DNA from: a bacterium
GTDB taxonomy: Bacteria > Zhuqueibacterota > Zhuqueibacteria > Residuimicrobiales > Oceaniaggregativiventaceae
DNA: 64,000 nucleotides
Reading direction: 5' to 3'
Assembly (NCBI GenBank): GCA_029565675.1
Contig: JAKQNP010000021.1
Coordinates: 97,630 to 161,629, forward strand
The position numbers and the translations under genes are program-made. Shown one piece after another: positions 8,953 through 58,157 of this stretch. Each line of letters begins with the position of its first letter. Positions within the stretch are counted from its first letter, which is position 1. The notes under the pieces are model-generated. The model did no database searches, was not told where the DNA came from, and saw nothing but the letters and a program-made list of their open reading frames with translations.

Positions 8953-10059
8953 TCAAGGTCGGCTAAGAGCCCTGAGCAGGTGGTGCAACACCATCCGGTT
9001 GTCCAGCGCCAGATAATGGGTTTCGCCGCCCATGCGGTAAAAACTCTTGAGAAAACGCAGATAATAGTCGGGCGAGGATTTCGGCGGTTCGCCCTGGCTC
9101 CAATCCCACACCGATTCCTGCAGATCGACCACCGCGATCAAATGACCGCTGATTTTCCTGCCGCTGTCGCCAGCCAAATTGTTGGCCAGAGAGAAGGATT
9201 TTTCAAAGACCTGCGGTGCCATGATCGCCGAGCCGATGGAAAGAAAAACTCCATCGGCCAATCCTCGAACCGACTGAGCAAAAATTCGAAAATCGACATA
9301 AGCTCCGCGGCCGAGCGCGGCGCCGTTGGCCAGCGGGTGGTTGTAGATGATGTCATAACCGATGCCGGGATGTACGGTGATCGGCACTCCGCAACGCACC
9401 GCATTGGCAAAGACTGAAGTCGCCTGGTGCGGATGCGCCAGGGGTTGAAAACCAGCCGGCAGGTTGAATCGCCTCAGGGTGTGGTAGAGTTCAGCCACAG
9501 CCGGCAAATCCTCGGTGTTGTCTGCTACGGCCTTGTGCAGACGCTCTTTGAGTTCATCGACAGTCGGCAGGTATAAACCCTGTTCGTGAATCAGGCGGCC
9601 GAGCGACTCGCCATAGCCCATGCCTTTTAGGGCTCCCACCTGCACCGCTAAATTGATCCAGCGACCGGTTTCATCCCAGGTGCCGAAACAGCCCCGCCCC
9701 GCGTTGGTCCGCACATCTTCTTCGCTCGCGCCTTGAAACGCAAATTCCCAGTCGTGTATCCCGCCGGCGCCGTTGGTCGCAACGTGGGTCAGCCAGCCTT
9801 GCTCCAGCAGCCGAATCACAAGAGGTGCAGCACCATTTTTGATCAGATGGGCGCCAAACGCCAGCATCACCGAAGAGCCCCGCTTGTGGGCACTGCGGAT
9901 GCGGTCGGCAATCCGCTGCACAATCTTTGCCGTCGATGCCGGCAGGTCGGGGGGGATGGTGTCCGGATCGATGGAGATATCGCGGATCCGGGTTTTGCTA
10001 TAGCGCTGGGCCAGTGGATAAACGCGGATTTCAGCTGGATCGATTTGCGGATAGGGCAT
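8953..10059 (-). CDS. deoxyhypusine-synthase-like family protein
   Basis: The VATNGAGGIHDWEFA segment resembles the DHS motif VTTAGGxEED. Rossmann-like. Assigned from memory of the family, not from a search. Confidence 0.4.
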   Translation of the reverse strand: MPYPQIDPAEIRVYPLAQRYSKTRIRDISIDPDTIPPDLPASTAKIVQRIADRIRSAHKRGSSVMLAFGAHLIKNGAAPLVIRLLEQGWLTHVATNGAGGIHDWEFAFQGASEEDVRTNAGRGCFGTWDETGRWINLAVQVGALKGMGYGESLGRLIHEQGLYLPTVDELKERLHKAVADNTEDLPAVAELYHTLRRFNLPAGFQPLAHPHQATSVFANAVRCGVPITVHPGIGYDIIYNHPLANGAALGRGAYVDFRIFAQSVRGLADGVFLSIGSAIMAPQVFEKSFSLANNLAGDSGRKISGHLIAVVDLQESVWDWSQGEPPKSSPDYYLRFLKSFYRMGGETHYLALDNRMVLHHLLRALSRP

Positions 10060-11335
10060 GGGATGAATCCTTTGAATTTATCGACTCATACACCGCCTGG
10101 CGGTTTTCCTCCGGCAGTTTGACTTCATTGAAAAAGGTCATGCCGATGAAACGGTCGTTTCTGGCAAAACACTCTTTCCCCCAGGCGATGATGTTTTTCA
10201 CGTACCTGGCGTCTTTGGGCGGCAGAGCATAGCCTTGCGGCATTTCCTTTCTGATGGTGGTGTGCAGGTAAAATTTCAGCGGTGCCAGATGGTCGATCAC
10301 TTTTTCCACCATCTCGGGCTCTTTGTCGCCGTTGCGGCCTTCGCAATAGGGCATGACGAAATCGCAGCCTACCTGCGCCAACAATTCGGTGCGGTGGCCG
10401 CGGAAGTTCTGATAATCGGCAATATCGAATTCCGAGGTCGGCAAACCGGTATAGAATCCGAACTCGAAATTGGGATTGATGCTTTTGATCAGCTTCTTGA
10501 GATCGATAAGGGTATCCCGCACGCGTGTGCTTTTCCAGAGGTGAAGCTCTTCGGGGCTGATGTTATCGCGGGTCTTGCCGGTATCCTGCAACAGCCGCTG
10601 TTGCGAGCTCCGACACCAGCAAGTATTTTCGGTATAGGAGGGGTGCTCGAGCACCAGACCGTCCAGGTCGCTATAGCGTTCCAGCACATCCCGGATTTTG
10701 TCGCGCATATATCGCTGTGCCGGTTCGCTGTCACAGCAGATGTGCAAGGTTTCGATGGCTTCGCGCTCCAGTGGATCAGCCGCCGGATCGATCTGGTGAA
10801 TAAAACCTCCCTGAGGCGGGGTCAGAAATTCCACGCCTGGATAGCCCCGGCGAATGCCGCGCATACCGAGATATTTGATTTCGATATAGATCTTGATGCC
10901 CAGGTGGTGAGCTTTTTTGATGATCTGTGAGAAAAACTCGGTTTCTTCGCAGCTGTTCAACGCCCTTGGGTCGATCTGCGGTTTAAGCAGCGGATTTCTC
11001 GCCGGCCACGCCAGCCCGTGATTTTCGGGAGAATAAGCGCCGTGGCTGGCCATCATGACGATCAGACGTGTCATGCCGTGCTGGTCCATTTCATCCAACA
11101 GCCGGCTGTAATAATCGTATCCCAGGCGGCGATCGCCGGTCTGGTAGGTCAGACAGGTTGTCCAACCGAAAACCATGTTGCGTTTCTTGTTTCTGCCATG
11201 ACAATGGGGCATGCCGATGCCCGCTGCCACAGAGGCCAACCCCATGCCTAAAAGCTGCAAAAAACGCCTTCTATCACTTTTCCTGTTGCTTGTGGTCATT
11301 TGAATCATCGCCCTGGTTTGGTCACAATCGTCCAC
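10031..11335 (-). CDS. Tat-signal secreted hypothetical protein, possibly a TIM-barrel glycosidase-like fold
   Basis: The twin-arginine signal SDRRRFLQLLGMGLASVAAG sits after an alternative start (MIQMTTSN...). No confident family assignment. Confidence 0.45.
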   Translation of the reverse strand: MDDCDQTRAMIQMTTSNRKSDRRRFLQLLGMGLASVAAGIGMPHCHGRNKKRNMVFGWTTCLTYQTGDRRLGYDYYSRLLDEMDQHGMTRLIVMMASHGAYSPENHGLAWPARNPLLKPQIDPRALNSCEETEFFSQIIKKAHHLGIKIYIEIKYLGMRGIRRGYPGVEFLTPPQGGFIHQIDPAADPLEREAIETLHICCDSEPAQRYMRDKIRDVLERYSDLDGLVLEHPSYTENTCWCRSSQQRLLQDTGKTRDNISPEELHLWKSTRVRDTLIDLKKLIKSINPNFEFGFYTGLPTSEFDIADYQNFRGHRTELLAQVGCDFVMPYCEGRNGDKEPEMVEKVIDHLAPLKFYLHTTIRKEMPQGYALPPKDARYVKNIIAWGKECFARNDRFIGMTFFNEVKLPEENRQAVYESINSKDSSHALSANRSS

Positions 11336-11853
11336 AGATGACGAAAAGTGGCGGATCTACCCCGAATGTGATTCTCGGGCGCTTCAATTGCGCCGAGTGA
11401 TCAACGCCATAATAGCCAATCGCGGCTTGAAAATCAAGAACCATTTCGATATTAGCGGCTCTTCTTATTCCGGGGAGATGCCCCTAGATGCCGATTTCTG
11501 AGGAACAAAATAAACTACCCAGATTCGGTGTCAACCGAATCAAAAATCATTCAATCACTTATTCCTTATGCGGTTGCACAAATGGCAGTTTCCACCCTCT
11601 GTGTATTGCTATCAGATTGATTTTCTGTGCGATTCGGTGCTGCGCACCGAATCCGGGAACTAATTGTAATTAACTTAAAAGATTAAGTTGGTTTGACTTC
11701 AACCACATGATGATTTTTATACTCGATTTCGGCCTGTACTTTTTATATGCGGCGTTGGCTGAAATCCATTCATCCTGTTGCATTTCGTCGCCTTTTTGTT
11801 TAAATTGACAATGCCGAGTTGAACGCAGAACCCAACCTGACGGAGGTTATGCC

Positions 11854-12147
11854 ATGGCATCGAAAAAAAGACCGCTGGCAGTCGTCGTGCTGTTGGCGCT
11901 GTTGGCTTTTCAGGGATTGAGCGGTGTATACGGGGGTGTGGGGTTGATTTTGGACCCCACGGGTGTATCGCTGCAGATTCCACAGGCCTGGCTCGAGGGA
12001 ACACCGTTTGCTGACTATTCGATCCCCGGATGGATCTTGTTGGTTGTGCTGGGCCTGTTGCCCCTTTTCGTTTTTTACCTTTTGCTCAACAGACGGCCTT
12101 CTTGCTGGTTTGCGACCGGTCTGGTCGGTGTGGCCCTGGTCATCTGA
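11854..12147 (+). pseudogene. small polytopic membrane protein interrupted by an in-frame TGA; the ORF continues to about 12300
   Basis: The reading frame ...TGLVGVALVI(TGA)IGVEILMIGYQAQPPLQLIYGTVGVVMLILLLLAS... continues as a TM helix across the stop. Putting Trp at the stop would give VIWIG. Confidence 0.4.
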
Positions 12148-13920: not shown

Positions 13921-13997
13921 CAACGGCAGCCGAGTTGTTCTGGACAACGGGCCACAAGCTGATCCCCTGCCCCCGCCTTGGATGAGATTGGAGGAGA

Positions 13998-15266
13998 ATG
14001 AAAGAGAAAATTTTGCAAGCGGCGGATTCGCCGCGGGAGTTGGAAGCGCTCTACCGAGCGCAGCCAAAAGAATTCAACCAGGCTTTCATGGCGGCTTATG
14101 CCGAGAGAAACGATTCTCTGGTTTTGCAGGCCTGGAAGGAACGATTGTTCTTATCTGCAACCGGTGCAATGAGCGAATCCTCGGGTGCTTCGCGTTGGCG
14201 GATTGGCGATATCAGCCTGGTCATTGTTTTATCGCTGATCGCCGGCACTCTGGCGAAACTGCCGCACTTCTTTTCGGCGGTTAATGAAAACTGGTTTTAT
14301 AGTCGCAACCTGGCGGGAATTGTCATCGGCGCTTTAATCGCCTACTTTTGTTTCCAAAGGCAGTGCGGCAAAAAAACAGCCGCCATTCTATCGATTCTGT
14401 TTTTCGGGGGCATGCTCTATTTGAACCTTTTGCCCGATAAATCCATCTCTCAGAGCATAGCGCTTGCCTGCCTGCACATGCCGGTCTTTTTTTGGGCCCT
14501 TTTGGGTGTTTCGTTTTTGGCAGGATCCTGGCAAAATTTGCCGGGCAGAATGGATTACGTGCGATACAACGGCGAAGTGGTGGTTTACAGCACCGTCATT
14601 TTGATCGGCGGAGTGGTGCTGACGGCCTTGACCCTCGGCCTCTTCGAGTTGATCGAGTTGAAAATTGAACAGTGGTATTTCAAAACCGTGGCGATCTACG
14701 GCGGCATCGCCGCGCCGATCGTCGCCACTCTGATCGGCGAGCGGATCGTCGGGACGCGTTTCAAGATCGCTCCGCTGCTCGCCAAAGTCTTTACGCCGCT
14801 TTTTCTCGTGATGGCCCTGGCTTATCTGGTTGCCATGGCAATCCAGCAAAAAAGCCCTTTCACGGATCGGGATTTTTTGATCGCTTTCAATGGACTGCTG
14901 CTGGTTGTCCTCGCCCTATGCGTTTTTTCGATTTCCGAACGCGGGACAACGGCTCGTTTCGCTGTTGCTGATTTCCTGAATATCGGATTGGTTCTGGTCA
15001 CGCTCATCATCGATCTCATCGCACTGGCGGCGATTCTTTTTCGTTTGACTTCATACGGCTACACACCCAATCGCCTGGCTGTGCTCGGCGCCAACCTGCT
15101 GGTCTTTTGTCATTTGGCTGGCATCCTCTACCTCTATGTGCGCTTTGTGGTCAAACGGCAATCCCTGACTTCGCTTGACCAGTGGATCGTTGGGTACCTC
15201 CCGGTTTATGTGATCTGGAGTGTTTTTGTGGCAGTGGCGTTTCCTCTGATTTTTTCATTCAAGTAA
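13998..15266 (+). CDS. polytopic inner-membrane protein of unknown function (about 10 TM)
   Basis: Hydrophobicity pattern only. Confidence 0.5.
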   Translation: MKEKILQAADSPRELEALYRAQPKEFNQAFMAAYAERNDSLVLQAWKERLFLSATGAMSESSGASRWRIGDISLVIVLSLIAGTLAKLPHFFSAVNENWFYSRNLAGIVIGALIAYFCFQRQCGKKTAAILSILFFGGMLYLNLLPDKSISQSIALACLHMPVFFWALLGVSFLAGSWQNLPGRMDYVRYNGEVVVYSTVILIGGVVLTALTLGLFELIELKIEQWYFKTVAIYGGIAAPIVATLIGERIVGTRFKIAPLLAKVFTPLFLVMALAYLVAMAIQQKSPFTDRDFLIAFNGLLLVVLALCVFSISERGTTARFAVADFLNIGLVLVTLIIDLIALAAILFRLTSYGYTPNRLAVLGANLLVFCHLAGILYLYVRFVVKRQSLTSLDQWIVGYLPVYVIWSVFVAVAFPLIFSFK

Positions 15267-15291
15267 ACAGACCGGCAAGAGCCGTGGTCGT

Positions 15292-18200
15292 CTAGTGCTC
15301 GCTGGGTATGGCTGTGGAGTGGATCGGTTGACCGGTCATCTCGGAAAGATAATCGATCAAACCGAGAAAAATTTTGTGCGCCAGATTACGGCGAAAGTCG
15401 GCGGAATTGAGTTTTTCCTCATCTTCGGCATGGCTCATGAACGCCTGTTCCACCAGCACAGCCGGACAGGTGGAGAGTCTGGTGACCAGATAATTGAACG
15501 ACCCGACCACACCGAATTCAGCCAGCGGCAGTTCGAGCAGACGATCGTAGATCGCATGGGCCAGAGGCGCCCAGAACGGATTGTGGTAGTAGGTGCTGGT
15601 TCCGGAAGCGCCGAGATAACCCCTTCCGGTGCCGGCGGCGTTGGCGTGGATGCTGATCAGCAAATCGGCCTCTTCTGCCACGGCAGTATCTTGTTTTTCC
15701 TGCAATCCCATGTCCACATCATGCTGTCGGATCTGGATGACTTGAATCCCGTGTTCCCGACAGATTTTTCCCAGTTCCTGCGCGACTTCCAGATTGATGG
15801 TTTTTTCCTCGAGTCCTGACAATCCGATGGCGCCGAGATTGCTGCCGCCGTGCCCTGCTTCGATGGCCACTTTGAGCCCGGCCGGCGACAACCCTTGGCC
15901 GTTTTTGTCCAGCCTGGGTGGGTAGCGCAGGCGCAGGCGCAAAAAGCCCTCTGCAGCTTCGATCGTATAGCCCCAAATTTTATCGGTTTTGAGGTTCACA
16001 TAGATAGTGTAGGTCTCCGGATCGGATTGTTCCCAGGTGATCCGATCGACCAGGCGAAGATTTTGGCGGTGCGTCAGCCAGGTGCTCAGAGTCTGTGCTC
16101 CAAACAGGCGGACGACAAGCCGTTTTTGCTCAGGTTCGGGGAAAATCGCATAGGGAATCGGCTTTTCATATGGAATAACCACCACGTCCTCGTCTTGACC
16201 GGGTGCCGCCTGAATGGAGCGGATAAAAGTGAACGGCTTTTCGCTGCCGTTCGGCAGAGCCTCGACATTTTGCGCGGACAGAAACGCTGAAAGGCTTTTG
16301 CCCAAACGGACGCGATAGAATTTGCCGAATCGGCCGTCGCTCTGCAGGATCACACCCGGTCCATATTCCGCCAAAATTGGCCCGCCCAGACGAATCATCC
16401 CCTGATTGTAGGTCAACGCGGTTTTGGCTGCCGTTGTGCGGAGCAGCGGAAAATAATCGGCCGTCTGAATGCGCACGATGCCCGGCACAACCGCCGATAT
16501 TTCAGCCTGTTGCGCTCCGGTCGCCGCTTGCAGGTGCACAACCGCATCCATATCCGCGTTCTGCGGCAGCGCGGCGGCCGGTAATTCGATCGAGTAGCGG
16601 CTAAAGTCGGATTCATCCTGGCGCTGCAAAGGGAAAAGCTGCCCGGCAGGCCGGATTTCAAGCCAGCCGGTCTGTCCTTGCGAACCGATCAGCGAAAAGG
16701 CGATTCGGTCCTCCGGCAAGAGCACCCGGCTCAATTTGGGTTCGATCGACAGCGTGTCGATCCATAACGGCAGCGGCGGGCGTGGCGGTGCGGGCGGCAG
16801 CAAGAAAATCTGTTTTTCATACATCTCTTTTGCTGAATCGGCAAATGTGCAGCAGCCCGTCACGCGGTTTATGCCCGGCTGCAGCGTGATCTCGTGAAAA
16901 AAAATGCCGGTTTGATATTGTTTGCAGGCAATGCCGTTTATGGCTGCTTCTGCCGGAAAGCTTGCCCTGAACAGGACCGGTATGCGCTCATGTCTGACGC
17001 TGTCCCCGGGACTGTCGCGCAATTCGATAAACGGTTCCGGGCGTTCGATTTGTCCCTCTTCAGTGATGCGGTAACGAAAGGGCAGCCGCCAGCGGTAATC
17101 GCGTTTTAGCCGCAGCCTGTCGTTGCCGGAGATGAGCTGCAGCGAATCGACCGTTCCCGGCAACACCACGCCAGCCCAACCATCGGCGTCTGCGATCTGG
17201 CAAAAACCGTTTATTTGCACAATTTGACCTCGCCTGGGCGTACCATCCGCTTGCAGCCACTGCAGGACCACTGCTCGCTCGGCACGGCCGCTTCGCCGCA
17301 AGCGCAATGGGCGATAGGGAAGAGGCGCGGCACCCGGTGCAGGTTCGGTTGCGCTCCATTCGCTGGCATTGGCGTCGATTCGCAGCAATCGCCCATGGGG
17401 ATGTCCTGGCTCTTTTGCTGTCGCTCGCGACTGATCGAGTGAAGGAGAAAAGTCGGCAAGCTCGAGAAAACCGATTGCCTGGATTGTATCAGAGTATGTT
17501 TGCCGAGCCAGGTCGTCGGCCGAAAAGACCAGTGCATCGAAAAGGGTTTGCCTTTCCTGGCGGGTGTAAGAGCTTTGCAGAGAAGGAGGATTGGTTTTTG
17601 CATTTGCAGCAAAGTTCGAACCTGGCAGTTGGCCGAAAAGCATCAAATCAGGGCGAATCACCAGTGATGCTGCGATGAGATCGTGGGCGCGCGCCAAGAG
17701 ATAGTCGCCGTCCACTTTGGCAAAAGTCCGGCCTGAGCAGGCCTCATCGGTTCGAGGCTGTCGGCGGTTTAAAGCATCACCGCCTCTCCCGCTTGCCGCA
17801 TGATCGGTACAGTCGAGAAACAGCCCATCCCATTCGACAGCCTGCAGCCATTTTTTCAATTCGCTTTTGTTCCGGCTGCTGAGTTCAGGCCAATCGGCGT
17901 TGAGATGCCGGCTCGCATCGATCGGGTGTCCGCCGGCTTGACCAGGCGCGTTTGCTGCAGATGCCTGGAGGTCAAGGCCGGCAAATACCGACAGGCCGAT
18001 TCGGTGCGCCTCTTGCACAGGTTGTTGAAGGCAAGCCGACAGGTCGACGGAGGAGGCTGCCGAACAGGGCAGCTCGAGCACCAAGACGTTGAAACCGCCA
18101 CGTCCACATCGATCGATGATCTCGTACAAGCGTTGTCGGGCGAGCTCGGCTTCCTGCAGGTGCCAGTCGGGCGCGGAGATGAGCACTCCACAGACATCAG

Positions 18201-18306
18201 CGGCCGGATTGGGCGGTTTTGGTGGTTCGGGGTGGGGCAAGTGTTGAACAGCGGCACAGCTGAGCCAAAAAATAGCGGCAGCAGACAAGAGCAGATGTTT
18301 TGCCAT
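15292..18306 (-). CDS. large lipoprotein with a C-terminal N-acetylmuramoyl-L-alanine amidase (Amidase_3) domain and an N-terminal glycosidase-like region
   Basis: Lipoprotein signal MAKHLLLSAAAIFWLSC (start at 18306). The C-terminus KVAIEAGHGGSN...ISIHANAAGTGRGYLGASGTSTYYH...AVLVEQAFMSH matches the AmiC/Amidase_3 zinc amidase. Confidence 0.65.
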   Translation of the reverse strand: MAKHLLLSAAAIFWLSCAAVQHLPHPEPPKPPNPAADVCGVLISAPDWHLQEAELARQRLYEIIDRCGRGGFNVLVLELPCSAASSVDLSACLQQPVQEAHRIGLSVFAGLDLQASAANAPGQAGGHPIDASRHLNADWPELSSRNKSELKKWLQAVEWDGLFLDCTDHAASGRGGDALNRRQPRTDEACSGRTFAKVDGDYLLARAHDLIAASLVIRPDLMLFGQLPGSNFAANAKTNPPSLQSSYTRQERQTLFDALVFSADDLARQTYSDTIQAIGFLELADFSPSLDQSRATAKEPGHPHGRLLRIDANASEWSATEPAPGAAPLPYRPLRLRRSGRAERAVVLQWLQADGTPRRGQIVQINGFCQIADADGWAGVVLPGTVDSLQLISGNDRLRLKRDYRWRLPFRYRITEEGQIERPEPFIELRDSPGDSVRHERIPVLFRASFPAEAAINGIACKQYQTGIFFHEITLQPGINRVTGCCTFADSAKEMYEKQIFLLPPAPPRPPLPLWIDTLSIEPKLSRVLLPEDRIAFSLIGSQGQTGWLEIRPAGQLFPLQRQDESDFSRYSIELPAAALPQNADMDAVVHLQAATGAQQAEISAVVPGIVRIQTADYFPLLRTTAAKTALTYNQGMIRLGGPILAEYGPGVILQSDGRFGKFYRVRLGKSLSAFLSAQNVEALPNGSEKPFTFIRSIQAAPGQDEDVVVIPYEKPIPYAIFPEPEQKRLVVRLFGAQTLSTWLTHRQNLRLVDRITWEQSDPETYTIYVNLKTDKIWGYTIEAAEGFLRLRLRYPPRLDKNGQGLSPAGLKVAIEAGHGGSNLGAIGLSGLEEKTINLEVAQELGKICREHGIQVIQIRQHDVDMGLQEKQDTAVAEEADLLISIHANAAGTGRGYLGASGTSTYYHNPFWAPLAHAIYDRLLELPLAEFGVVGSFNYLVTRLSTCPAVLVEQAFMSHAEDEEKLNSADFRRNLAHKIFLGLIDYLSEMTGQPIHSTAIPSEH

Positions 18307-18384
18307 ATCGATCTCCTTGGACAATTGTCGCGCTTCATTGTCTTCTTTAACGGCGGGAATAACCGCCTGGCTGGCTGAGTTGCA

Positions 18385-18879
18385 GTGGAAAAGAACTGTG
18401 CAAATCGAGAGTATGGAATGGTTCAACTAGACAAAAGCGCCGATCCATCGGTTCGGGCGACACACGAGCATGCCGGCGATGGGCCGATTCTATTCTTCGA
18501 TGGGATTTGTGTTTTGTGCAATTCGACGGTGGACGCCATTTTGCGTCTCGATTCCAAACAGATCTTTCGCTTCGCCGCATTGCAATCGCCGGCCGCCACA
18601 AGGCTTCTCGCGCCCTATTGCGATGATTTGGCCGCAGTCGACAGCGTGGTGCTGCTGGAAGATGGCCAGGTTTTTACCCGTTCTGAAGCCGTGCGCCGGA
18701 TCGCCCGTCGCCTCGCAGGTTTGTGGCCGGCGGTTTCCCTGCTGCTCAGGTTGATTCCTCGATCGTGCGGCGATCTCTTTTATGAATGGATCGCCGCCGG
18801 CCGCTATCGCCTGTTCGGCCGGCGCCAAAGCTGCCGCCTGCAAGATGACCGCTGGGCGGATCGCTTTATCATTGCCTGA
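18385..18879 (+). CDS. thiol-disulfide oxidoreductase DCC family (DUF393) protein
   Basis: FFDGICVLCNSTVDAILRLD carries the DxxCxxC motif of DCC proteins. Confidence 0.7.
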   Translation: MEKNCANREYGMVQLDKSADPSVRATHEHAGDGPILFFDGICVLCNSTVDAILRLDSKQIFRFAALQSPAATRLLAPYCDDLAAVDSVVLLEDGQVFTRSEAVRRIARRLAGLWPAVSLLLRLIPRSCGDLFYEWIAAGRYRLFGRRQSCRLQDDRWADRFIIA

Positions 18880-19855
18880 CTTCGTAAAACGTCAATACGG
18901 TGCGCCACTCGAGCGCATCTCCGGTTTTGACCTCAAAGCGGTGGGCGCTGTGGGGACCGAGCACTCGGTCGTTGCCAAGAATTTCCAGTTTTTGTGCCGG
19001 CAGAGTGTTGTGAACCTGCACACCGATGCCTGCCTGGGGATTTTCCAATTGAAAAATGACCTTGATCGATCGGTCAGAAGATTGATAGGCAACGGTTTCC
19101 ACCGTTTCTTTTTTCTGCACCGGTCTTTTTAGCAAAAAATCGTTGCTCAACAACTGCCAGGTCTCTGTGCTATCCTCGATTACAGGGATTTCTTTGGCCA
19201 GGCGCAGAATCAGGTTGGAATCGATCGGCTGGTGATCGATATTGAAGCGAAATGTACAGTTCAGGTCGCTCGTCAACAGAGTGCGGCCGACATTTTCCAG
19301 AATCGACTGAATTTCGACTGTGTTCGGGGGGAGCAAACGAATGCGTTTGCCGTAAAAGTAGCCGCTGTCCTTGCCGTACACCAGTGAATTTTCCACAATT
19401 GCCCAAGTCTGACCATTGGACATTTCCCACCTGGCTGGTTCTATGACTTTCGGCTCCTCCACGTCCTGGTATTGAATTTGGCCGATACCTGGCCGAACGC
19501 CGAAACCGGATTTTCCCTGCTCGTACGGGAAGAGCGCCAGCTCGCGGTTGAATTCGTTGAGAATGCCGATGCCGTGATCTGGATTGAGAGGATCGTGGTC
19601 ATCCGGCCATTCCGTAATAAACGTATGGCCTTTGTAGCTGATCTGAGCGATTTGATTGCCCCAATCATAGCGCGTGCCGCGATAATACCCGTTTTTGGCA
19701 TCCGGCTTAAAAAGAGTCAACTGCAAATCCCCGCTGCGCAATTCGATCTTGGGATATTTGTCTTCAAGATAATAACCATCCGGATTCTTGCGCTGGCATT
19801 GCAGAAAAAAGACCGCTGCCAAACACATGCTCAAGAGGAAAAAACCTTTTCTCAT
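18869..19855 (-). CDS. hypothetical lipoprotein
   Basis: The lipobox LQC follows an N-terminal signal. No family recognised. Confidence 0.45.
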   Translation of the reverse strand: MRKGFFLLSMCLAAVFFLQCQRKNPDGYYLEDKYPKIELRSGDLQLTLFKPDAKNGYYRGTRYDWGNQIAQISYKGHTFITEWPDDHDPLNPDHGIGILNEFNRELALFPYEQGKSGFGVRPGIGQIQYQDVEEPKVIEPARWEMSNGQTWAIVENSLVYGKDSGYFYGKRIRLLPPNTVEIQSILENVGRTLLTSDLNCTFRFNIDHQPIDSNLILRLAKEIPVIEDSTETWQLLSNDFLLKRPVQKKETVETVAYQSSDRSIKVIFQLENPQAGIGVQVHNTLPAQKLEILGNDRVLGPHSAHRFEVKTGDALEWRTVLTFYEVRQ

Positions 19856-20327
19856 TGTCCAGGTCCTGTTTTACGGTACAAGAGTTCATTCATCGATTAA
19901 TAAGGGTTTGTTTCAGGATTACGAATATAGAATTTATCCCCTTTCGATGCAAGCAGATTCGCCCGAATCTGCTGGCTTGTTGCACAACGCGGGCTGACGG
20001 CGTCGATTTGGTTGCCTTGCTGCTGTGCGCTGTTGTCTGCTTCTGCTCCGAAAACCGCTCGAAATGCCCAGTCTGTCGATGAAGCAGACAAATTGACAGA
20101 CTGCAGTCTGCAAAGTTGACATAATGACAGTCATGCGCCAATTATAAATAAACAGCATTAGAGCATAAATAACAATAAGATAGCTAATTCATCTTCAATT
20201 TGGCACGGCGTTTGTTACAGTTGAAGGCGAAAGCATAAAGTCGAAATTGCAAAAAAAAAGAGCATACACAAGCGGTTGGCCAAACCCCGGTACACCGCAA
20301 ACAGCAACCATAAAGGAGGAATAAACC

Positions 20328-53119: not shown

Positions 53120-54052
53120 ATGAGTTTTTTTACAGTCATTCTCATCGGATTGATCTTTTTTGCCCTGGTTGCTTTTTTTAAAACCATTGTCATTGTGCCG
53201 CAAAAGTCGGCTTTTATCGTCGAACGTCTGGGCAAATATGCCGGCACCATGGAAGCGGGATTTCATATTCTCATTCCTTTTATGGACCGGGTGGCATATC
53301 GCCATACGCTGAAAGAACAGGCTTTGGACGTGACGCCGCAGACCTGTATCACCAAGGACAACATTTCGGTTCAGGTCGACGGCATCCTCTACCTGCAGGT
53401 GGTGGATGCGCGCAAGGCATCCTACGGCATCAACGACTACCAGTTTGCCTCCGCGCAGTTGGCGCAGACGACCATGCGCAGCGTGATCGGCACCATGGAA
53501 CTCGATCGGACCTTTGAAGAACGACAGACCATCAATGCGGCGATTGTCGATGCCGTTGATAAAGCGTCGGATCCCTGGGGGGTAAAAGTGACGCGTTACG
53601 AGATCAAGAACATCGAACCGCCGGTGAGCATCAAGGACGCCATGGAAAAGCAGATGCGCGCGGAACGGGAAAAGCGCGCCCTGATCGCCCAGTCCGAAGG
53701 CGACAAACAGGCCAAGATCAACCGCGCCGAAGGGGAAAAGCAGGAAGCGATCAAAAAGTCGGAAGGCGAGATGCAACGCCGCATCAACGAGGCGGAAGGC
53801 CGGGGGCGGGAGATCGAGCGGGTTGCTGAAGCGACCAGCGCCGGCTTGATACGCATCGCCGAGGCGATCAACAAAGAGGGCGGCCTCAACGCGGTCAATC
53901 TGCGCATTGCCGAGCAATACATCAGCGAATTCGGCAATCTGGCCAAGACCAACAACTCGCTGATCGTGCCGACCAATTTTGCCGATATCGCCGGCCTGAT
54001 TGCCAGCGCCATGACCGTGGTCAAAGACCAAAAAGCGGGCAAGAAGAGCTGA
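53120..54052 (+). CDS. SPFH/band-7 (stomatin/slipin-like) protein
   Basis: RBS AAGGAGG. An N-terminal TM helix, then the SPFH domain (SAFIVERLGKYAGTMEAGFHILIPFMDRV...), then a Glu/Ala/Lys-rich coiled coil. Confidence 0.85.
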   Translation: MSFFTVILIGLIFFALVAFFKTIVIVPQKSAFIVERLGKYAGTMEAGFHILIPFMDRVAYRHTLKEQALDVTPQTCITKDNISVQVDGILYLQVVDARKASYGINDYQFASAQLAQTTMRSVIGTMELDRTFEERQTINAAIVDAVDKASDPWGVKVTRYEIKNIEPPVSIKDAMEKQMRAEREKRALIAQSEGDKQAKINRAEGEKQEAIKKSEGEMQRRINEAEGRGREIERVAEATSAGLIRIAEAINKEGGLNAVNLRIAEQYISEFGNLAKTNNSLIVPTNFADIAGLIASAMTVVKDQKAGKKS

Positions 54053-54266
54053 ACCTGATCATCTGTTTTAAATAAATTATGAACCACGAAGGGCGCGAAG
54101 GACACGAACCTGGATTCGGTGCGCAGCACGGTTATTTTACTATTCGCATTATAAATAGGCCAATTTTCTATTTAGTTCGCCTCCGGCTCTGCCTTGCGCT
54201 CCGGTTTTGACAGTTCTTGCGAATCGGCGGCGAATTGGGTCTTTATGGGATCGAGCATTTTCGCAG

Positions 54267-54836
54267 GCGCAAGGCAGGATCCTCCGGCGGCTCCGCGCGT
54301 CTCCTCGGCCGCAAGAGAAGCGGCCTGCGGGGTCGCGCTCCGCAGGATTTTATGAGGCGGATTGTGCGAGTTGGGTTGTTTCGTATGTGTCGTTTGGTTA
54401 CAGGGTAGTTGGCGCTATTGATTATGCGCAAATCACGGTTTTCGTTTCGCCGGGTTCTCTTGGCGATTCTGTACAGGCGCCCCAGCGGGGTGCGATATTT
54501 CTAGCCCGGGGCGCAGCCCCGGGAATCGGCATTATTTCCGCCACCGCGGGGCTTGTCCCCGCGGAGCGATGATTCTTAGCCAGATCCGAGCCCCTTCCCG
54601 CCCCTTTTTGCTAGGGGTGGTGGGGCATCATTTAATTGGCTTTCAATCACCATCCTGCAGGGACAAGCCCTGCGGTGATGGGGATTTGGCGGTGCTGCGA
54701 TCTGGCTGTCAATCCTCATCCCACGGGGGCAAGCCCCGTGGGATGAAGCGAGAATCCTCCTAAAATCCTGCGAAGCGCGATCGCCGAGTCCGCCGCTTTT
54801 GCGGGCGAGGCAGCGCGCGGAGCCCGCGGAGGATCC
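54267..54836. mobile_element. 570-bp noncoding MITE-like element: ~85-90-nt imperfect terminal inverted repeats (54267-54357 vs 54756-54836, about 80-85% complementary) enclosing several GC-rich hairpins (stems around CTTG/CAAG loops). No ORF with coding character.
   Basis: The reverse complement of the right arm (ggatcctccgcgggctccgcgcg...cgcaggattttaggagg) aligns to the left arm (ggatcctccggcggctccgcgcg...cgcaggattttatgagg). Internal hairpins are at about 54505-54523, 54543-54569, 54651-54677 and 54719-54743. Confidence 0.5.
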
Positions 54837-55180
54837 CGGCCCCGCGACGCAAACAATCAAAAGAGAACGATCTGAATCATTTCCCGCAATTCCTGGTCAC
54901 GGAACAGAAGCGGGGCCGGAGCCGGAGCGGCCCCACAAAAGCAAATGCTGATACATCAAACAGCGTACAATCGTTTGCATCAAAATTACCACTCTCGAGA
55001 AATCGCGCGAAGCGGCACAAAATAAAAACACTCGAGTATCAGGTGTCAGATTTTTCAACACGACGCCCACCATTGTTATTTTCGCCTTGATTTAAGCTTA
55101 TAAAATGTTTTATTGAAAGAATATGATTTTGAAGACCAATGAGCAGATTTCACCAGATGGATTGGAAGAAAGGGTCGGAT

Positions 55181-56791
55181 ATGAACAAGCGAGTTCCAGC
55201 GATGTTCGGCATACTGATGCTCAGCTGTTTCACGACAGGTTGGGCTTGTACCAATTTTCTTATCAGCAAAGGCGCAAGCGCGGACGGTTCGACGTTTATC
55301 TCCTACACCGCGGATTCGCATGTTCTGTTCGGAGAGCTCTATTATTTCCCGGCAGCGGAATATCCCGAAGGAGCGATGCTGGATGTTTATGAATGGGACA
55401 GCGGCAAATATCTCGGCAAGATCCCGCAGGTGCGCAAAACCTATTCGGTCGTCGGCAACATGAATGAACATCAGGTTTCGATCGGCGAAACGACCTTCGG
55501 CGGCCGCCCGGAATGCCAGGGCGGCAAGGGAGAGATGGATTACGGCAGCCTGATGTATATCGCTTTGCAGCGCGCCAGAACCGCCCGCGAGGCGATCCGC
55601 ATTATGGGTGAGCTGGTGCAGAAACACGGCTATGTCAGCAGCGGCGAGTCCATTTCAGTGGCCGATGCGAACGAGGTCTGGATTTTGGAGATGATCGGCA
55701 AGGGTCCGGAGGAGAGCGGCGCAGTGTGGGTGGCGCGGCGGGTGCCGGACGGTATGATCTGCGCGCATGCCAACCAATCCCGCATCCGCCAATTTCCGCT
55801 GGATGATCCGGAGAACTGTCTCTATTCAGCGGATGTGATCGAATTTGCCCGCAAAAGGGGCTTTTTCAGCGGCAAGGATAGCGATTTCAGCTTTGCCGAC
55901 ACCTATGCGCCGGCCGATTTTGGCGCGTTGCGCTTTTGTGAAGCGCGGGTTTGGAGCATGTTCCGCCGCGCCGCTCCTTCGATGAAATTTGATCTCGACT
56001 ATGTCCGCGGCGACGCGAAGGCAGAACCGCTGCCGCTGTGGATCAAACCGGAGCGCAAATTAACCCTGCAGGATGTCGTCGCTTTTATGCGCGACCATTT
56101 CGAAGATTCCGAATTCGATCTGCACGACGGCATCGGCGCCGGGCCGTATAAATTGCCCTACCGCTGGCGGCCGCTGACATGGAAAGTCGACAGCACCGAA
56201 TATTGCCACGAGCGTTCCACCTCCACCCAGCAAACCGGTTTCTCTTTTGTGTCGCAGATGCGCTCTGCGCTGCCCGATCCAATCGGTGGGGTTTTGTGGT
56301 TCGGCGTCGACGATACCCACAGCACCGTCTATGTGCCGATGTATTGCGGCATGCAAAAAGTGCCGAAACCCTATGCGGTTGGAACAGCCGACTTTTGGCA
56401 TTTTTCCTGGGAATCGGCTTTTCACATCTTTAATTTTGTCGCCAATACCGCTTACTCGCGCTATCAGGACATGATCCGCGACATTCAGATTGTCCAGCAA
56501 GAGCTCGAAGGCGGCTTTTTCGCTCGACAGACGGAAATCGAGGCTGCCGCCCTGGCCCTATATCGCCAATCCCCTCAGCTGGCGCGCGATTATCTGGGCA
56601 CCTATTCAGTGGAACAGGGAGAAAAAACCGTTGAGCGCTGGCGGCGTCTGGGCGAGTTTTTGTTGCTCAAATATATGGACGGCAATGTCAAGGATTTTAC
56701 CACCCGCGAGGTCACCCATCCCGGCTATCCAGAATGGTTCTATCGCAAGATCGTTGAGGAGAGCGGCGATCGCTACCGGGTGATCGAATAA
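55181..56791 (+). CDS. C69-family dipeptidase (secreted; N-terminal Cys nucleophile)
   Basis: A signal peptide ending ...FTTGWA, then CTNFLI. Peptidase C69 (PepD-like) layout. Confidence 0.75.
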   Translation: MNKRVPAMFGILMLSCFTTGWACTNFLISKGASADGSTFISYTADSHVLFGELYYFPAAEYPEGAMLDVYEWDSGKYLGKIPQVRKTYSVVGNMNEHQVSIGETTFGGRPECQGGKGEMDYGSLMYIALQRARTAREAIRIMGELVQKHGYVSSGESISVADANEVWILEMIGKGPEESGAVWVARRVPDGMICAHANQSRIRQFPLDDPENCLYSADVIEFARKRGFFSGKDSDFSFADTYAPADFGALRFCEARVWSMFRRAAPSMKFDLDYVRGDAKAEPLPLWIKPERKLTLQDVVAFMRDHFEDSEFDLHDGIGAGPYKLPYRWRPLTWKVDSTEYCHERSTSTQQTGFSFVSQMRSALPDPIGGVLWFGVDDTHSTVYVPMYCGMQKVPKPYAVGTADFWHFSWESAFHIFNFVANTAYSRYQDMIRDIQIVQQELEGGFFARQTEIEAAALALYRQSPQLARDYLGTYSVEQGEKTVERWRRLGEFLLLKYMDGNVKDFTTREVTHPGYPEWFYRKIVEESGDRYRVIE

Positions 56792-57733: not shown

Positions 57734-58157
57734 GCAGAACAACCAGGATGAAGAAGCCTTTATCGTCGCGCTTTCGGCTCGCCTGCAAGCGGAACGAGAT
57801 GCTTATTCGAAGTAGCGATCTTTCCGATTCCGCGTTTCATCTTTGCCGGCTGATCCGGCTTTGCCGGAAAAGGTGATGAACGACTGCAATTTTTTGCCAC
57901 AACTATCTGCAATTTCTCAGAAACTTTTTTCTTCCGGTTTCGTACGTGCATTTAGATGCTTCTCGATCATTGGGTGAAGCAGGCAAAGCACTTGCCGTTC
58001 CGGACAGTACAACCAAACTCGAACCACAACCGGAAAAACTGACGGCCAGGCAACCCTGAACCAGCTTCACAGCCAGAGCATTTGGAGGGGAGCACTTATT
58101 GGTTGAATTGGATTCGATTGATCGATCATTCTGATTTCGACGGGGAGAGAGCAGAGA

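Follow-up and report, generated by a model that had tools for sequence, protein, structure and literature searches.

BOX elements, known from Streptococcus pneumoniae and S. suis, are modular repeats of the form boxA-boxB(n)-boxC, in which the terminal modules pair with each other and the variable, tandem internal module folds alone and interacts little with the rest (PMC3049150); BOX variants of S. suis have large terminal modules of 115-133 nt (PMC3049150). REP/RAYT systems (REP, repetitive extragenic palindromic; RAYT or RayT, REP-associated tyrosine transposase) have as defining marks palindromes with a GT(A/G)G head, many copies per genome and a rayt gene that has inverted REPs on both sides (PMC2817692, PMC3333891, PMC3337134). 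Here these systems are compared with a feature at 54267-54836 of a 64-kb window (the whole stretch of bacterial DNA that was analyzed), which lies in the 1,086-nt intergenic region between an SPFH/Band_7 gene (53120-54052; preceded by an NfeD gene, in an NfeD-SPFH operon) and a C69 dipeptidase gene (55139-56791). The feature is probably one complete copy (~54165-55013) from a family of intergenic repeats that is modular, rich in palindromes and low in copy number: putatively a previously undescribed family, of the sort of BOX, bacterial interspersed mosaic elements (BIMEs) and MITEs (miniature inverted-repeat transposable elements), with an equally putative mechanism of mobilization.

A repeat search located two inverted arms at 54277-54357 and 54756-54836, each 81 nt long, 80% complementary to each other and 398 nt apart; they form the longest inverted repeat of the window and its sole long one (self-BLAST E 9e-14), and both start with GGATCCTCCG and finish with CGCAGGATTTTA(T/G)GAGG. 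An earlier sequence-only reading of this DNA had described arms of ~85 nt that were ~80-85% paired and alike at their ends, and this description holds at a slightly shorter length. The internal hairpins it had listed (at least four, GC-rich, three of them related and alternating in orientation) are all present: three related 41-nt units, u1 (54542-54582, inverted), u2 (54637-54677, forward) and u3 (54703-54743, forward), have the flanks TGGCTnnnAATC and loops ACAAG or GCAAG (CTTGT in the inverted u1), and further hairpins lie at 54477-54493, 54505-54523 and 54598-54620. So is the extra hairpin it had noticed past the right arm, GGGGCCGGAGCCGGAGCGGCCCC (H; GGGGCC...GGCCCC) at 54912-54934. Compared with dinucleotide shuffles, the 580-nt stretch has folding z-scores of -13.9 and -14.7 on its two strands.

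Because homology among the copies described below continues outside both arms, the repeated unit does not appear to end with the 81-nt arms. The unit, judged from the alignments, is bigger (~0.85 kb, ~54165 to 55013) than the 570-bp unit 54267-54836 that had been proposed, and it is over this longer span that homology to the other copies runs. Weak inverted symmetry reaches ~190 nt per side, past the 81-nt arms: a hidden Markov model (HMM) of the right arm (R-arm), the adjoining spacer and H matches 54356-54165 on the minus strand (E 2.7e-14), and the outer halves of the inverted repeat align weakly, ~3 standard deviations above shuffles.

Other copies were found by translating the minus-strand stop-free frame 54579-54896 and running it against a representative library of 1.8 billion proteins: four matches (P0135-P0138) are spurious open reading frame (ORF) calls on related elements at other loci. 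As this route sees only copies that bear a gene-caller ORF, the copy count is a lower bound; the plus-frame ORF 54159-54569, used as a protein query, gave no match. About four independent loci were recovered (at least four with the window), plus local duplicates, and the copies are 73-92% identical to the window element (BLAST). The sequence-only reading had made a repeat depend on the presence of other copies, and related copies do occur at other loci of what appears to be the same organism. One copy, on a digester contig from ENA (L100), adjoins GNAT and galactokinase genes. On the JGI contigs L101 and L102, the copy lies between an HlyIII gene and the first of two RayT-like ORFs, in a neighbourhood where a CsgG/FlgO gene and a type III-B CRISPR-Cas locus are also found. 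Two copies (c1 and c2) are present on each of L104/L103 and L105 (GCA_046128295.1, a 933-kb contig), either side of a nucleotidyltransferase-like ORF of 149 amino acids (aa). The neighbourhood shared by the L105 copy and the window is coincidental: the Band_7 genes of L105 are only 20-22% identical to the window SPFH.

On composition and accession grounds, the copy-bearing loci come from this organism or from one very close to it: their tetranucleotide composition correlates with that of the window at 0.978 for L105, 0.960 for L100 and 0.957 for L104 (benchmarks: 0.978 between the window's own halves and at most 0.86 for unrelated loci), and L101, at 0.85, is linked by shared accession series of metagenome-assembled genomes (MAGs), as one of its proteins (RayT-like; HOX84361, HPG46042 and HPM97864) is found in the same three series as the window peptidase (HOX86729, HPG46082 and HPM98291). 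In all, ~200 kb of the organism's genome was covered. Inside the 64-kb window there is no other copy (BLAST, module HMMs); no related element was seen at 80 genome loci with C69 peptidase homologues (at most 68% identity); and five viral-contig scans and a distant BLAST against plasmids and phages gave no match. Scanning metagenome contigs with GGATCCTCCGN{50,72}GCAGGATTTTA returned the same locus only (L099) plus five chance matches, this arm-tip pattern being too strict in that other copies differ at the arm tips. As far as seen, only one bacterium has the family, an uncultured one from anaerobic digesters (NCBI 'MAG: bacterium') that bears genes of the type IX secretion system (T9SS) kind. 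Two of the C69 loci, L035 and L023, have long inverted repeats that are unrelated in sequence to the element; that of L035 (9547-9618 / 9767-9839, in the Bacteroidales MAG UBA5197) is 76 nt long, 79% complementary and directly upstream of the C69 dipeptidase gene.

The window locus itself recurs in many anaerobic-digester assemblies. Its intergenic region is 100% identical in L084, L085 and L090 (GCA_035389605.1) and 97.8% identical in a second strain (L088, L089, L099). The closest C69 dipeptidase outside the species is only ~70% identical, and so there is no syntenic relative for comparison. The modules of the window copy are as follows:

54165-54276, plus strand: left flank (LF), forming the diverged outer half of the inverted repeat on the left side; a T-rich run, then CGCCTCCGGCTCTGCC
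54277-54357, plus strand: L-arm (L-type subtype), the 81-nt left arm; local hairpin GGCCGC-AAGAGAA-GCGGCC, stem 54324-54346
54358-54541, plus strand: interior module, optional and rich in G+T; hairpins 54477-54493 and 54505-54523; from the alignment and an interior HMM
54542-54582, minus strand: u1, 41-nt hairpin unit, inverted; stem CCGCGGGG, loop CTTGT on the plus strand
54590-54628, plus strand: central hairpin, core CCGCCCC-TTTTTGCT-AGGGGTGG at 54598-54620; apex of the u1/u2 pairing
54637-54702, plus strand: u2 and linker, with a 66-nt period; one unit in the window, four in tandem at L100
54703-54755, plus strand: u3 and a short linker to the R-arm; 13-bp perfect stem 54716-54746
54756-54836, plus strand: R-arm (R-type subtype), the 81-nt right arm; local hairpin GTCCGC...GCGGAC
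54837-54911, plus strand: spacer from R-arm to H; kept in L104c1 and L105c1, replaced in L101a by a different sequence of equal length
54912-54934, plus strand: H hairpin GGGGCCGGAGCCGGAGCGGCCCC, then an A-run
54935-55019, plus strand: tail module, AAAAGCAAATG...AATCGTTTGCATCAAAATTA...GAAATCGCGCGAAGCGGC; ends in a remnant of another R-arm outer end

The module order, taken from a seven-copy alignment and module HMMs, is LF, L-arm, optional interior, inverted u1, central hairpin, u2, u3, R-arm, spacer, H with its A-run, and tail (to ~55019). Complete copies are those of the window, L104c1 and L105c1, the latter two without the interior; L104c1 has an additional partial block of R-arm, spacer and H (a duplicated block). 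L104c2 and L105c2 are truncated, stopping inside u3 without an R-arm; the interior is missing from L105c2 as well and is present and longer in L104c2. L100 is without LF and L-arm and has four tandem u2 units at the 66-nt period. Solo modules occur at L101, with R-arm, spacer and H in L101a and the R-arm only in L101b. At the level of single modules, LF (the inverted counterpart of the right-side spacer plus H) was found by its HMM in six copies, and 54165-54381 is 87% identical to copy 1 of L104 and L105 (BLAST); the R-arm is 92% identical to L101 10103-10190 and is also found alone at other loci; H is common to L100, L101a, L104c1 (twice), L105c1 (one GCCGGA unit fewer) and the regions upstream of the RayT-like genes; the tail HMM matches L104 and L100; and the central hairpin is poorly conserved in sequence between copies. 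The arms fall into two distinct subtypes, L-type and R-type, and each of these is conserved from locus to locus; the same goes for the u1, u2 and u3 subtypes. Therefore the imperfect palindrome appears to predate dispersal, the composite having spread as a unit.

Module content also differs between strains that are 96-99% identical in the flanks: i) copy 2 has a 253-nt interior in L104 and none in L105, although the flanks of the two are 98.8% identical; ii) one GCCGGA unit of H was gained or lost; iii) the R-arm/H block is duplicated in L104c1; and iv) upstream of a RayT-like gene, L101 has arm b and L106 has spacer plus H. Such strain-variable module content is a possible strain marker. Just past H, 54934-54994 is hypervariable, with 9 of the 24 intergenic strain differences falling within 60 nt; the flanking genes are 99.5-99.9% identical. 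Contigs end inside the element at 54332, 54811, 54904-54906 and ~54934 in five independent assemblies (Logan L001, L082, L083, L087 and L093; JGI L086 and L092), and because these contig breaks coincide with it, the element probably breaks up MAG assemblies of this organism. It also generates spurious gene calls, namely the four database 'proteins' and one miscalled ORF over a RayT pseudogene.

By architecture, not homology, the closest analogue of the element is BOX of S. pneumoniae and S. suis (PMC3049150). Like BOX, it is composite, intergenic and non-coding, its module number varies among strains, its predicted structure is strongly paired and it encodes no transposase. The BOX-type behaviour of the parts is found too: the arms pair in both of the complete copies compared, u2 occurs one to four times with a 66-nt period, and the u hairpin is self-contained. 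On the other hand, there is no sequence relationship, and the element is 4-8 times larger and GC-rich, with nested palindromes and ~190-nt inverted ends; moreover, a handful of copies was recovered, versus more than 100 BOX per pneumococcal genome, and the host lineage is different and uncultured.

Bacterial MITEs (Correia, ERIC, Nezha) resemble the element in their inverted repeats, lack of an ORF, dispersed copies, folded transcript or single-stranded DNA (ssDNA) and intergenic position beside genes. The sequence-only reading had suggested a MITE-like insertion: that the element is repeated and non-coding is supported, whereas terminal arms, a target-site duplication (TSD) and a parent insertion sequence (IS) are not. 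A canonical MITE would be a deletion derivative of a DDE-transposase IS, mobilized in trans via long terminal inverted repeats, and we consider this unlikely. The long imperfect inverted repeats, lack of coding capacity, dispersed multiple copies and strongly paired predicted structure are among the features listed for MITEs (PMC3049150), and the element is short, non-coding and multicopy, ~0.8 kb being at the upper end of MITE sizes. However, no direct repeat was seen at 54277/54836, 54267/54846 or ~54163/54948, so that a TSD flanks neither the 81-nt arms nor the extended ~190-nt repeats, and none is apparent at the L104c1 and L105c1 boundaries. Since homology runs on past the arms and the last module varies from copy to copy, no fixed termini can be recognized. 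Neither a transposase nor an IS with matching ends was seen across the window and ~130 kb of loci from the same organism (genome fragments), and no IS at all was seen in the ~200 kb covered of this genome. MITEs are typically AT-rich, whereas the element is GC-rich, and it is also much larger, mosaic and prone to truncation. The mosaic, truncated and low-number copies thus fit modular repeats of the BOX/BIME type better than a canonical MITE.

The claim that the region has no coding ORF is supported by the sequence comparisons, which point to a non-coding element on three grounds: Pfam gave no match for the longest ORFs; in the second strain, two of them would be frameshifted by a 1-nt insertion at 54741; and in a 121-aa ORF four of the five strain single-nucleotide polymorphisms (SNPs) are at first codon positions. 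A small protein was rejected in view of the frameshifting indel. Three further candidates were also rejected: an integron attC site (the arm ends have no GTTRRRY cores, and no integrase lies nearby), a CRISPR array or remnant (the 66-nt units are repeated whole, 'spacer' part included) and an invertible promoter (no exact inverted stretch longer than 12 nt and no invertase nearby). No tRNA or tmRNA genes were found.

Single-strand folding of the element appears, from the substitution patterns, to be constrained, with the RNA and DNA levels not distinguished. The u-unit hairpin is paired in 99.2% of cells across 16 units, and three of its eight pairs show G-C to A-U switches on both sides, a covariation score reached in 0 of 500 shuffles; u1 is able to pair with u2 or u3. 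In the local arm hairpin three pairs are changed on both sides (e.g. GGCCGC..GCGGCC in L-type versus GTCCGC..GCGGAC in R-type), the R-arm version is perfect in strain 2 and all other copies, and a strain-2 SNP at 54805, a misfit in the long helix, completes this local stem. Between the window and L104c1, the long L-R helix has two compensatory (54344/54769 and 54346/54767), six wobble-preserving and seven breaking changes, and most of its mismatches are common to both copies. When folded as ssDNA, two diverged complete copies give the same nested foldback.

These data bear directly on the other proposal of the sequence-only reading, a large structured RNA family, i.e. multi-copy small RNA genes or cis-regulatory elements of untranslated regions for which a folded transcript is needed. 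The stable folding on both strands (z about -14), the compensatory changes in local hairpins and part of the long helix, and the co-orientation of most copies with a neighbouring gene are all compatible with it. Covariation does not favour RNA, however, because it is equally expected for hairpin-forming DNA repeats. Base-pair asymmetry gives a divided answer: strain SNPs at 54491 (in the interior hairpin of strain 2) and 54656 turn G-T into G-C on the plus strand and the u2/u3 stems have four G-T wobbles versus one A-C, but this slight G-T excess is limited to local stems, and along the 81-nt helix the G-T mismatches are balanced by A-C ones, with no strand asymmetry and with 10 mismatches of other types. 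Most L/R mismatches are kept between copies, not repaired. One-arm copies (L100, L104c2, L105c2) and solo arms (L101a, L101b) persist, the interior module is dispensable and one unit ranges from one to four copies. Moreover, the hairpin unit and its loop are conserved both ways round, which is unexpected for a strand-specific RNA motif. Comparison with Rfam, which had been suggested, came out negative: Rfam 15 gave 0 matches at gathering thresholds over the whole window, and a permissive scan of 53900-55300 gave chance-level matches only (at most 20 bits, E at least 0.36). As far as searched, there is no homologue outside the one organism. A functional RNA family is therefore about as improbable as a canonical MITE.

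REPs, BIMEs and REPINs (REP doublets forming hairpins) are a further point of comparison (PMC2817692, PMC3333891, PMC3116915, PMC3337134): as in those, extragenic hairpin units alternate in orientation and are clustered in mosaic arrays, complementary mutations preserve the palindromes, and a TSD is lacking. The BIME architecture is evident in u1 on the minus and u2/u3 on the plus strand, in the 66-nt period and in the inverted arms, each a local hairpin. The differences are that the units are longer (41-81 nt), that the arms are 398 nt apart and form no compact REP doublet, and that the copy number appears far below the usual >100 per genome: the 64-kb window has one copy, and the other same-organism flanks (~200 kb covered in all) have none except at the loci located through spurious ORFs, a density far below that typical of REPs. 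None of the hairpins of the element (u1-u3, arm hairpins, H) has a GT(A/G)G head.

The likeness to BIMEs also brings in a domesticated-site reading, in which the element would be a host DNA site (for binding of a nucleoid protein or gyrase, or a cruciform) kept for chromosome structuring and not by selfish spread. Its palindromic units alternate in orientation, like those of BIMEs (PMC2817692), and are conserved whichever way they face, and the copies are old and diverged, yet still structured. However, a structural role across the genome would call for more copies than these, the frequent truncations and the loss of modules between strains point to weak constraint, and no binding protein can be inferred from the sequence. 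This reading is the least probable of those weighed here, and we regard it as very unlikely.

The likeness to REP/RAYT systems extends to RayT-type genes in the same genome, which adjoin family modules, each with a GTAG-headed palindrome upstream. For the L101 ORF 9449-9769 (minus strand, 106 aa) there are 971 homologues, many of them under the name 'REP element-mobilizing transposase RayT', and the full-length ones (~180 aa) carry PF01797; the ORF itself has a weak match to NCBIfam REP_Tyr_transpos. A second RayT-like copy, L101 11076-11575 (minus strand), is a stop-containing pseudogene, which in other strains is a 121-aa ORF (L106 2922-3287); the gene caller skipped it and called a 160-aa ORF on the opposite strand (11033-11515) instead. 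In L101 both RayT-like genes (IS200-type Y1 transposase) lie either side of the HlyIII gene, each just downstream of an R-arm. H precedes the first, and the second is preceded by arm b without H in L101 and by spacer plus H without arm b in L106. A perfect GTAG-headed palindrome, GTAGGGCGACGAGCCTCGTCGCCCT(G/A)C, stands before each gene and has no intergenic copy in the window. Downstream of the RayT-like genes there is no partner repeat, and neither of the two L101 genes is flanked by two inverted repeats.

Transposases of the IS200-like Y1 HUH class leave no target-site duplication. Because two such genes have left relics immediately downstream of solo R-arm/H modules, and because no TSD would be expected, a RayT/IS200-like Y1 HUH transposase acting in trans on ssDNA is the most likely mobilizer among the explicit candidates, although still a tentative one, more doubtful than not. 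The link is circumstantial, and clustering of repeats explains it equally well. The bolder possibility, that the family represents an undescribed class of large (~0.8 kb) nested foldback elements moved as ssDNA by RayT/IS200-type Y1 transposases (a 'giant, modular REPIN' in a non-proteobacterial lineage), or a multi-copy large structured RNA with a cellular role, is a long shot.

The 149-aa ORF between the copies in L104 and L105 was considered as a transposase and rejected, as it has only weak DUF6036/DUF2204 nucleotidyltransferase matches. Together with an overlapping 67-aa upstream ORF (L104 1279-1864 / L105 10802-11251) it is maybe toxin-antitoxin-like, and it lies next to the truncated end of copy 2. 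In L101, a type III-B (Cmr) cluster (Cas6, RAMPs, Cas10/Cmr2, Cmr3) at 13923-20279 is ~2 kb from arm b (11836-11898) and ~4 kb from arm a; this region has a lower G+C content (49% versus 55%).

A modular repeat family remains the preferred reading, and several observations weigh against it: i) the apparent copy number is low, one per 64 kb and ~four independent loci, reached via the indirect, ORF-dependent route; ii) no termini, target motif, TSD or empty site could be defined among the window and the recovered loci, so that transposition is a candidate beside ectopic recombination and segmental duplication; iii) stem covariation and co-orientation with neighbouring genes also fit a role at the RNA level; iv) both RayT-like genes are truncated or pseudogenized (106-121 aa versus ~180 aa); v) their GTAG-headed REP differs in sequence from the element and is absent from it; and vi) the modules beside them (arm distal, H proximal) are in the opposite order to a simple RayT-deleted derivative, so that the association may be mere repeat clustering.

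Under the modular-repeat reading, the modules are arranged as a nested foldback, with the left side (LF, L-arm) paired to the right side (R-arm, spacer, H), u1 paired to u2, and u3 left as a free hairpin. A composite that already had distinct L- and R-type arms was copied to several loci as a unit, and the copies later diverged to the identities now seen. They are being remodelled by tandem slippage of the 66-nt unit, deletion and duplication of modules and exchange between copies, with the stems kept through compensatory substitutions; both propagation and upkeep would depend on single-strand folding. Roles as insulators, stabilizers or attenuators have been described for REP/BIME, BOX and ERIC repeats. 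By analogy, the local role of the element at the SPFH/dipeptidase site is probably passive: when transcribed, it would be a strong structural block, made of very stable hairpins, that separates the two transcription units and may serve as an insulator, a stabilizer of 3' ends or an attenuator. Insulation or attenuation at this site is thus a candidate role, and nothing points to a new mechanism. What is added is a probable undescribed family of interspersed repeats from an uncultured anaerobic-digester bacterium, suggesting that modular hairpin repeats in the style of BOX and BIMEs, with RayT-like relics alongside, exist in this lineage.

A second small repeat, the hairpin CCGGATTCGGTGC-GCA-GCACCGAATCCGG, was also noticed. 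It occurs in the window at 11635-11656 (minus strand) and 54110-54131 (plus strand), in L101 at 9300-9327 and in L105 at ~9700-9745, and its motif, present twice in the window, appeared so in 0 of 100 shuffles. In L101, ~55 nt of flank ending in AAAATCAATCTGAT is shared. The occurrence at 54110 has half the stem kept and a T-run after it, and may be the SPFH terminator. Farther downstream, 57734-58157, between the SASA esterase and S8 peptidase genes, is the site of a strain indel (compared with L082 2831-5265 and L089 4199-6461): the window is without the insert, which in some strains adds ~2 kb and three small genes (of 112, 98 and 128 aa), two of them for zinc-ribbon proteins.

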